From the UHGV virus genome UHGV-0138535: a stretch of DNA of 53,721 nucleotides; one strand, 5' to 3'. A program made the position numbers and the translations under genes. How positions within the stretch are numbered: position 1 is the first letter of the stretch; the number at the start of each line of letters is the position of its first letter. The notes beneath the pieces are model-generated. The model saw nothing but the letters and a program-made list of their open reading frames with translations, did no database searches and had not been told where the DNA came from. The stretch is from a virus. Below, piece after piece: positions 44,326 to 44,405 of this stretch.

Positions 44326-44348
44326 CAAAAACCCGGCGCGGGGCCGGG
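44326..44348 (-). terminator. intrinsic terminator just upstream of holin (tR'-like)
   Basis: Minus strand: CCCGGC-CCCGC-GCCGGG hairpin followed by TTTTT. Confidence 0.55.
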
Positions 44349-44376
44349 TAATTACAATTTCGCATTGTTAGGAAAT

Positions 44377-44405
44377 ATTTTAATCTGTTTGTTTACGCCC
44401 TACAA
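44377..44405 (-). promoter_or_regulatory. candidate late promoter (PR'-like): -35 TTGTAG, 17-bp spacer, -10 TAAAAT
   Basis: Sigma-70-like hexamers about 30 nt upstream of the terminator hairpin, mirroring lambda PR'/tR' ahead of the lysis cassette. Confidence 0.35.

Follow-up and report, generated by a model that had tools for sequence, protein, structure and literature searches.

Where does a lambda-family Q protein act when its own gene leaves no space for a target behind it? The Q antitermination cassette, as defined, lies immediately after the Q gene (PMC9388147). In the virus genome UHGV-0138535, a stretch of 53,721 nucleotides that we analysed as a whole and call the window, the stop codon of Q overlaps the ATG of the next ORF (TAATG), leaving no intergenic space after Q and therefore no room for a promoter directly after it. 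The region is 86-92% identical in DNA sequence to the Nus-dependent "non-lambdoid" coliphages of the mEp021-like (mEpimmI) group, to which we assign the window by its sequence. Its late genes are on the minus strand, and the following features frame the question.

50642..51364, minus strand: Q antiterminator of the lambda-Q family, 240 aa (PF03589, 102 bits, cut-off 26.7)
44413..50642, minus strand: about 26 tightly packed small ORFs, from Q to the candidate module
44106..44306, minus strand: holin, HP1-type class II, the first gene downstream of the candidate module (PF16080)
43614-44105, minus strand: endolysin (PF00959)
43156-43626, minus strand: Rz (PF03245)

The Q protein aligns over its full length with lambda Q (7UBM_Q, E = 1.3e-36). 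In lambda Q, the RNA-exit nozzle is built from the N-terminal 60 residues (PMC9388147), and it is in these residues, G39 and L58 among them, that the alignment shows its highest conservation. Because this nozzle-forming segment is so well conserved, we regard the window Q as a plausible working antiterminator. The gene is also retained in all 43 relatives whose flank extends to the Q position. Relative to lambda Q, residues ~115-147 form an extra CxxC...CxxC insert of about 33 aa with a weak DnaJ_CXXCXGXG match, which implies a putative second zinc ribbon in the DNA-binding arm. Many family members are longer (250-278 aa), and the insert may be common to them. Near Q, a single 298-aa ORF (51549-52445, minus strand) joins an HNH_3 endonuclease (residues 50-94) to a RusA resolvase (residues 173-278), unlike the stand-alone, 135-aa RusA of mEp021.

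The gap before the holin, directly upstream of the lysis genes, is 106 nt long, and its candidate -35 is located 6.2 kb downstream of the Q stop codon (50642). It contains a series of promoter-like and terminator-like elements.

44405-44400, minus strand: candidate -35 TTGTAG, weak (3/6, TTG kept)
44399-44383, minus strand: 17-nt spacer GGCGTAAACAAACAGAT
44394-44383, minus strand: conserved spacer block AAACAAACAGAT, adjoining the -10; candidate Q-binding element
44382-44377, minus strand: -10 TAAAAT (5/6 match)
44369-44364, minus strand: -10-like AACAAT, 7 nt past the -10; candidate sigma70-dependent pause element, at about +1 to +6 or +2 to +7
44349-44331, minus strand: intrinsic-terminator hairpin ACCCGGC/CCCGC/GCCGGGT, 7-bp stem and 5-nt loop, 27 nt past the -10
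44330-44321, minus strand: tail TTTTGCTTTG after the hairpin
44321..44331, minus strand: T-run and tail TTTTTGCTTTG, invariant; end of the predicted leader RNA of about 44 nt
44318-44314, minus strand: holin RBS GGAGG
44306, minus strand: holin ATG

An earlier note on this DNA had described the sigma-70-like promoter elements, the GC-rich hairpin and T-run some 30 nt after the -10, their place directly before the holin, and their distance of about 6 kb from Q with the array in between. Each of these lies as it described, and the AACAAT element is a new addition to that first reading.

Of the terminator-like sites in 40000-53721, the hairpin ranks first, with seven pairs of which six are G-C. 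It folds with -18.1 kcal/mol (z = -3.5), and none of 200 shuffled sequences folds as well. The promoter matches the consensus at 8/12 positions, with only 3/6 in the -35, and thus falls below the scanner threshold; an extended -10 is absent from the module. Promoter-like matches are not enriched in the region (25 found, 28.6 expected). The pattern of a -10, 6-7 nt and a -10-like element, derived from other lambda-Q phages, has four matches in the window, where 2.2 are expected. The consensus match of the promoter alone is not above chance, and the significance of the module comes from its position and its conservation rather than from the consensus match itself.

Two other promoter-like sites were rejected. 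A cluster at 49431-49236 (TTGACA-17-AATTAT and others) was considered as an alternative late promoter; it falls within an ORF of 121 aa that has a PHROG match, and the whole segment 50637-49046 is missing from the viable phage mEp021. In many relatives Q is closely followed by AAACGAT; this motif belongs to the coding sequence of the first array ORF and is likewise missing from mEp021. Downstream of the lysis genes, a -10 / -10-like pattern at chance level occurs at 42993-42976, in the gap of 280 nt that follows Rz (42877-43155), and a series of very short hydrophobic ORFs (41600-42330, minus strand) leads from the lysis cassette to the small terminase subunit. With the covariance models of Rfam 15, no match was obtained at E <= 1 in 43000-53721.

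To follow the gap through the phage group, we compared 46 sequences: 43 close IMG/VR loci retrieved with the holin, mEp021, mEp044 and the window. Thirty distinct upstream sequences among them were used for comparison position by position. TAAAAT, 7 nt and AACAAT are present in all 46. At the -35 position, TTGTAG occurs in 19 loci, TTGTGG in 14 and TTGTTG in one, so that 34/46 carry TTGTNG; the other 12 have the poor TCGCGC. Among the 30 distinct sequences, the spacer block 44394-44383 reads AAACAA[A/G][C/T][A/G]GAT, and two runs in the module are invariant, GATTAAAATA (10 nt) and CTAACAATGCGAAA (14 nt). Both hairpin arms are also invariant or essentially so, as are the T-run and the RBS. The variation falls in the -35 region, in the linker between the -10 and AACAAT, at three positions between AACAAT and the hairpin, and at four of the five loop bases. 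By comparison, 38% and 49% of the third codon positions are variable in the adjacent holin and lysozyme genes, respectively (16-genome subset). Because the terminator stem is invariant, it offers no covariation within the group, and the support for a terminator comes from the contrast between loop and stem variability (Fisher p = 0.006) together with a non-homologous hairpin in the sister lineage L118, described below.

The shared sequence begins at 44394 (AAACAA...), where at least four different upstream ORFs adjoin the module among the 30 distinct sequences, and in E. coli prophages the homology boundary is likewise exactly at 44394. The module occurs in 32 of 5,426 complete genomes, MS 21-1 among them, one copy each. 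In the 43 relatives in which both genes were found, the distance from Q to the holin ranges from 2.0 to 6.8 kb. When 38 Q-to-holin intervals were searched with a loose pattern (-10, 5-8 nt, -10-like), the site 76 nt before the holin ATG was the only match common to all 38, and mEp021, whose array is the shortest, has no other match between Q and the holin. An exact-pattern scan of IMG/VR for GATTAAAATANNNNCTAACAATG gave one copy per contig, and none was noticed beside Q in other kinds of phage. Most of these contigs were already in the holin-retrieved set, and two new ones stand outside the comparison. The GTDB species genomes scanned with Q yielded no relatives. Given that the mEpimmI relatives are close to each other, at ~80-95% DNA identity, part of the invariance could reflect recent common ancestry, and an independent view of the conservation of the module comes from the L118 lineage only.

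Sister lineages were found by protein search with Q and are absent from the phage database searched. The nearest, P0009 (L121 and L122), has a Q 76% identical to that of the window, the same gene order and a 6.5-kb array, and its module reads TAAAAT-6-AACAAT followed by the same hairpin as in the window. In P0010 (L118-L120, Logan phage contigs of 52-54 kb) Q is 50% identical, and the genes run NinG-RusA-61 aa-Q-array-holin. The array gaps there are at most 10 nt save one of 111 nt, which lies before the holin and reads TTTTAAACAATATCGGG-TATAAT-TCCCTC-AATAAT-18 nt-AGGCTGGAATTGTTCCGGCCT-TTATTTTTTT-RBS-ATG. The layout is thus kept with different bases: the tandem elements, TAAAAT and AACAAT in L121, are TATAAT and AATAAT in L118, 6 nt apart in each case, and the L118-type terminator is non-homologous and folds with -19.8 kcal/mol. 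TAAACAA is found in P0010 at nearly the same distance from the -10 as in the window. The -35 is poor in both lineages (TCGCGC in L121, AAGCGC in L118). In P0011 (Q 46% identical) ORFs follow directly after Q with no gap. The Citrobacter lineage P0013 (Q 40% identical) is organised like an ordinary lambdoid phage, a gap of 530 nt separating Q from the lysis genes. The displaced arrangement is therefore a trait of the mEp-like clade (Q at least ~46% identical), the more distant family members being conventional. L118-L120, L121 and L122 also share the order ERF-SSB...Dam...NinG-RusA-Q-array-holin with the mEpimmI phages. Their arrays carry extras, namely a PAPS-reductase-like gene in L121 and L122 and a HAD/PNKP-like gene in L118.

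Taken together, we consider it likely that the 106-nt gap is the late-gene control module of this phage group, equivalent to lambda PR'-qut-tR'. Host sigma70 RNA polymerase would start about 7-8 nt after TAAAAT, at ~44369-44370, and sigma region 2 would re-bind AACAAT in the first transcribed bases, producing a pause at about +16. Without Q, transcription would end some 44 nt downstream of its start, at the hairpin and T-run. Accumulated Q would bind the conserved block AAACAAAYAGAT, from -25 to -13 and just upstream of the -10, and join the paused polymerase, which would become terminator-resistant and go on to transcribe the holin, endolysin and Rz genes and the downstream packaging and structural genes. 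Unlike in lambda, Q would act in trans, 2-7 kb away, with a variable array of small ORFs in between. The earlier note had called these elements PR'-like and tR'-like; the family of Q, the AACAAT element, the conservation and the recurring layout all speak for that reading, whereas the -35 that it named is not conserved, being TCGCGC in 12/46. This weak, non-conserved -35 is the main weakness of the module reading.

The main rival explanation starts from the early antitermination system of these phages. Terminator read-through in mEp021 is reportedly attributed, in the published work, to the N-like protein Gp17. The description of t5 is expected to be found in Valencia-Toxqui et al. 2023. The records of mEp021 and mEp044 annotate this hairpin, at the corresponding position upstream of the holin, as TERM_5 and T8, respectively. 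The terminators t1, t2 and t5 are given as demonstrated by experiment in the context of Gp17 (PMC11893012), and t5 is apparently TERM_5, judging from the numbering. The terminator itself was thus already on record. No promoter, pause element or Q site is given at the hairpin in the mEp021 and mEp044 GenBank annotations or in PMC11893012, and neither promoters nor terminators come up in the supplements of that paper. The window also holds a nut-like site on the same strand.

53267..53300, minus strand: nutR2-like boxA/boxB upstream of ninF, which we infer to be nutR2 since its location agrees with that in PMC11893012

The boxA-like sequence TGCTCTTTAAAAA occupies 53300-53288 and the boxB-like sequence GCGCTGAAATGCGT 53280-53267 (minus strand), and the site is identical in mEp021 (L001 5138-5175). 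It is preceded by a promoter-like TTGTTA-16-TATACT at 53342-53315 (minus strand), which suggests that nutR2 may have its own promoter. Closer to the holin, a boxB-like leader hairpin (ACAAT-GCGAA-ATTGT) was considered as an N/nut site and rejected, its pairing being broken by a T-to-C variant in about half of the relatives; no boxA was found in 44412-44350.

On these grounds, the hairpin could be plain t5 of the early rightward operon, with TAAAAT and AACAAT inactive and the late genes reached mainly by Gp17-modified polymerase. The annotation of the terminator, the listing of t5 as demonstrated with the Gp17/nut system, the co-orientation of the genes from the nutR2-like site to the holin and the poor -35 in many relatives all favour it. 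It leaves unexplained the invariance of TAAAAT and CTAACAATGCGAAA and the recurrence of TATAAT-6-AATAAT in an otherwise different lineage, and it gives a conserved, full-length lambda-family Q no target to act on. We consider this explanation unlikely, if the most serious of the alternatives. It is also not exclusive of the Q module: N-type (Gp17) antitermination from nutR2 may cross the pre-holin terminator as well, and the two are compatible because in lambda N-modified polymerase likewise crosses tR'.

A second alternative dispenses with the promoter. Polymerase arriving from the early operon would re-bind sigma70, pause at the tandem elements and be captured by Q bound to the block. In allele 2, L121 and L118, no -35 is recognisable, while the upstream block persists together with both tandem -10-like elements; in L121, moreover, the stop codon of the upstream ORF lies inside the TAAAAT element, and therefore transcription and translation run right up to it. 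Against this stand the 34/46 relatives that retain TTG in the -35, at the optimal spacing of 17 nt, and the distance from the -10 to the pause element, which is exactly that of the lambda promoter. We know of no precedent for a lambda-family Q that loads away from a promoter, and we hold such loading to be quite improbable. There is a similarly slim chance that the Q site of this phage group has lost its promoter, with most lineages lacking a recognisable -35 and Q capturing sigma70-rebound polymerase from the N-antiterminated early operon; the late switch would then be promoter-independent, N-type antitermination passing over to Q-type on a single unbroken transcript. Finally, an ordinary, Q-independent lysis promoter that happens to stand beside an array-ending terminator would account for the presence of both a -10 and a terminator, but we regard it as very unlikely, given that a promoter upstream of a strong terminator would give no holin expression unless termination were overcome, that constitutive holin expression would presumably be lethal to a lysogen or a replicating phage, and that the conserved block resembling a pause element would be unexplained.

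With the Q module as the preferred reading, the array between Q and the holin would fall outside the late operon. Q and the array probably share transcription from the early rightward operon, and delayed-early rather than late expression of the array is plausible. Its first ORF is translationally coupled to Q, its ORFs are tightly packed, it lies downstream of the nutR2-like site, and it contains no promoter module common to the relatives before the holin gap; all of these fit a delayed-early array. The homologue of mEp021 gp41 (47591-47836), however, is an array protein, and mEp021 gp41 has been detected in virions, which weighs against such timing. This point is weakened because the early protein Ssb was also found in virions.

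The content of the array is mosaic across relatives. Most of its ORFs match PHROG families, none of which has an assigned function. Two adjacent tandem copies (44586-44765 and 44413-44589, minus strand) both belong to phrog_15318, and the paralogous ORFs 47379-47591 and 46861-47100 (minus strand) both to phrog_31142. The only other array gap of at least 90 nt, 46542-46639, contains a perfect CRP consensus, TGTGA-N6-TCACA, at 46638-46623 (minus strand), followed by an 8-bp hairpin, AAATGGCA (46613-46606) / TGCCATTT (46593-46586); some array ORFs may thus be under host-regulated control of their own, a further reservation about delayed-early expression of the whole array. A terminator-like hairpin, AAGCGGGATAAAACCCGCTT, with a T-run lies at 48757-48776 (minus strand) within the 5' end of ORF 48561-48794, which is part of a segment present in almost all relatives including mEp021.

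If the module reading is true, it locates the late promoter and the Q-utilisation site of the mEpimmI phages, which are common human-gut coliphages and for which the accessible literature treats early (Gp17/nut) antitermination only. A lambda-family Q and its target would then not need to adjoin, and annotation pipelines that expect PR' immediately behind Q would overlook such a module. The variable array of 2-7 kb would be placed in the transcription unit of Q and not in the late operon, and this timing would guide guesses at its function, for example host takeover or anti-defence. What the analysis adds is the position of a putative late promoter with its Q site, which a variable array unlinks from Q and whose -35 is unusually weak.

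To compare the module with known systems, we inspected the sequence downstream of Q in eight further phages of the lambda-Q family. The -10, the spacing in nucleotides and the -10-like element are as follows.

lambda and P22: TAAATT-6-AACGAT
mEp460_ev081: TAAATT-6-AATGAT
PhiR47_1: TAAGAT-6-AACGAT
IMG/VR L051: TAAATT-7-AATAAT
ES18: TAATAT-cgtttc-TAACAGT
Erwinia phages Eho49 and phiEt88: TATAGT / TATACT-4-TAACACT

In all eight, an intrinsic terminator follows the module, the module starts within ~110 nt of the Q stop, and the -35 is good, unlike in the window. In lambda PR', the -10-like AACGAT at +1 to +6 is a sigma70-dependent pause element (PMC4005639); it is needed for Q loading, and the lambda QBE sits in the promoter spacer, in the same place as the conserved block here (PMC9388147).

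The window shares with lambda and P22 a Q of PF03589, a -10 followed 6-7 nt on by a -10-like element (AACGAT there, AACAAT here), an intrinsic terminator shortly after, and a holin gene downstream; its conserved spacer block, a candidate Q-binding element, has the position of the lambda QBE. A very short leader is normal for the family, as the annotated tR' of P22 lies at +31 to +59; the hairpin here lies at about +21 to +39. The differences are equally clear. In lambda and P22 the cassette starts within ~80 nt of the Q stop, whereas in the window 6.2 kb and about 26 ORFs separate the two, and in relatives the distance is 2.0-6.8 kb. The -35 is either weak or missing. In sequence, the spacer does not resemble the lambda QBE; the pause element is followed by GCG and not by the GGG of lambda and P22, and lacks their TTGACT-like element just upstream. 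Compared with lambda Q, the window Q has the additional CxxC...CxxC insert of ~33 aa. Among sequenced phage records, the closest Q outside the mEp-like group is that of ES18 (254 aa, 35% identical), and its TTTACA-17-TAATAT-cgtttc-TAACAGT...terminator resembles TAAAAT-atttcc-TAACAAT here. Unlike the window, ES18 has a good -35, and its module follows Q directly, with ~300 nt left to the holin. The mechanism in the window would thus be the textbook lambda-type Q switch, set in an unusual gene order.
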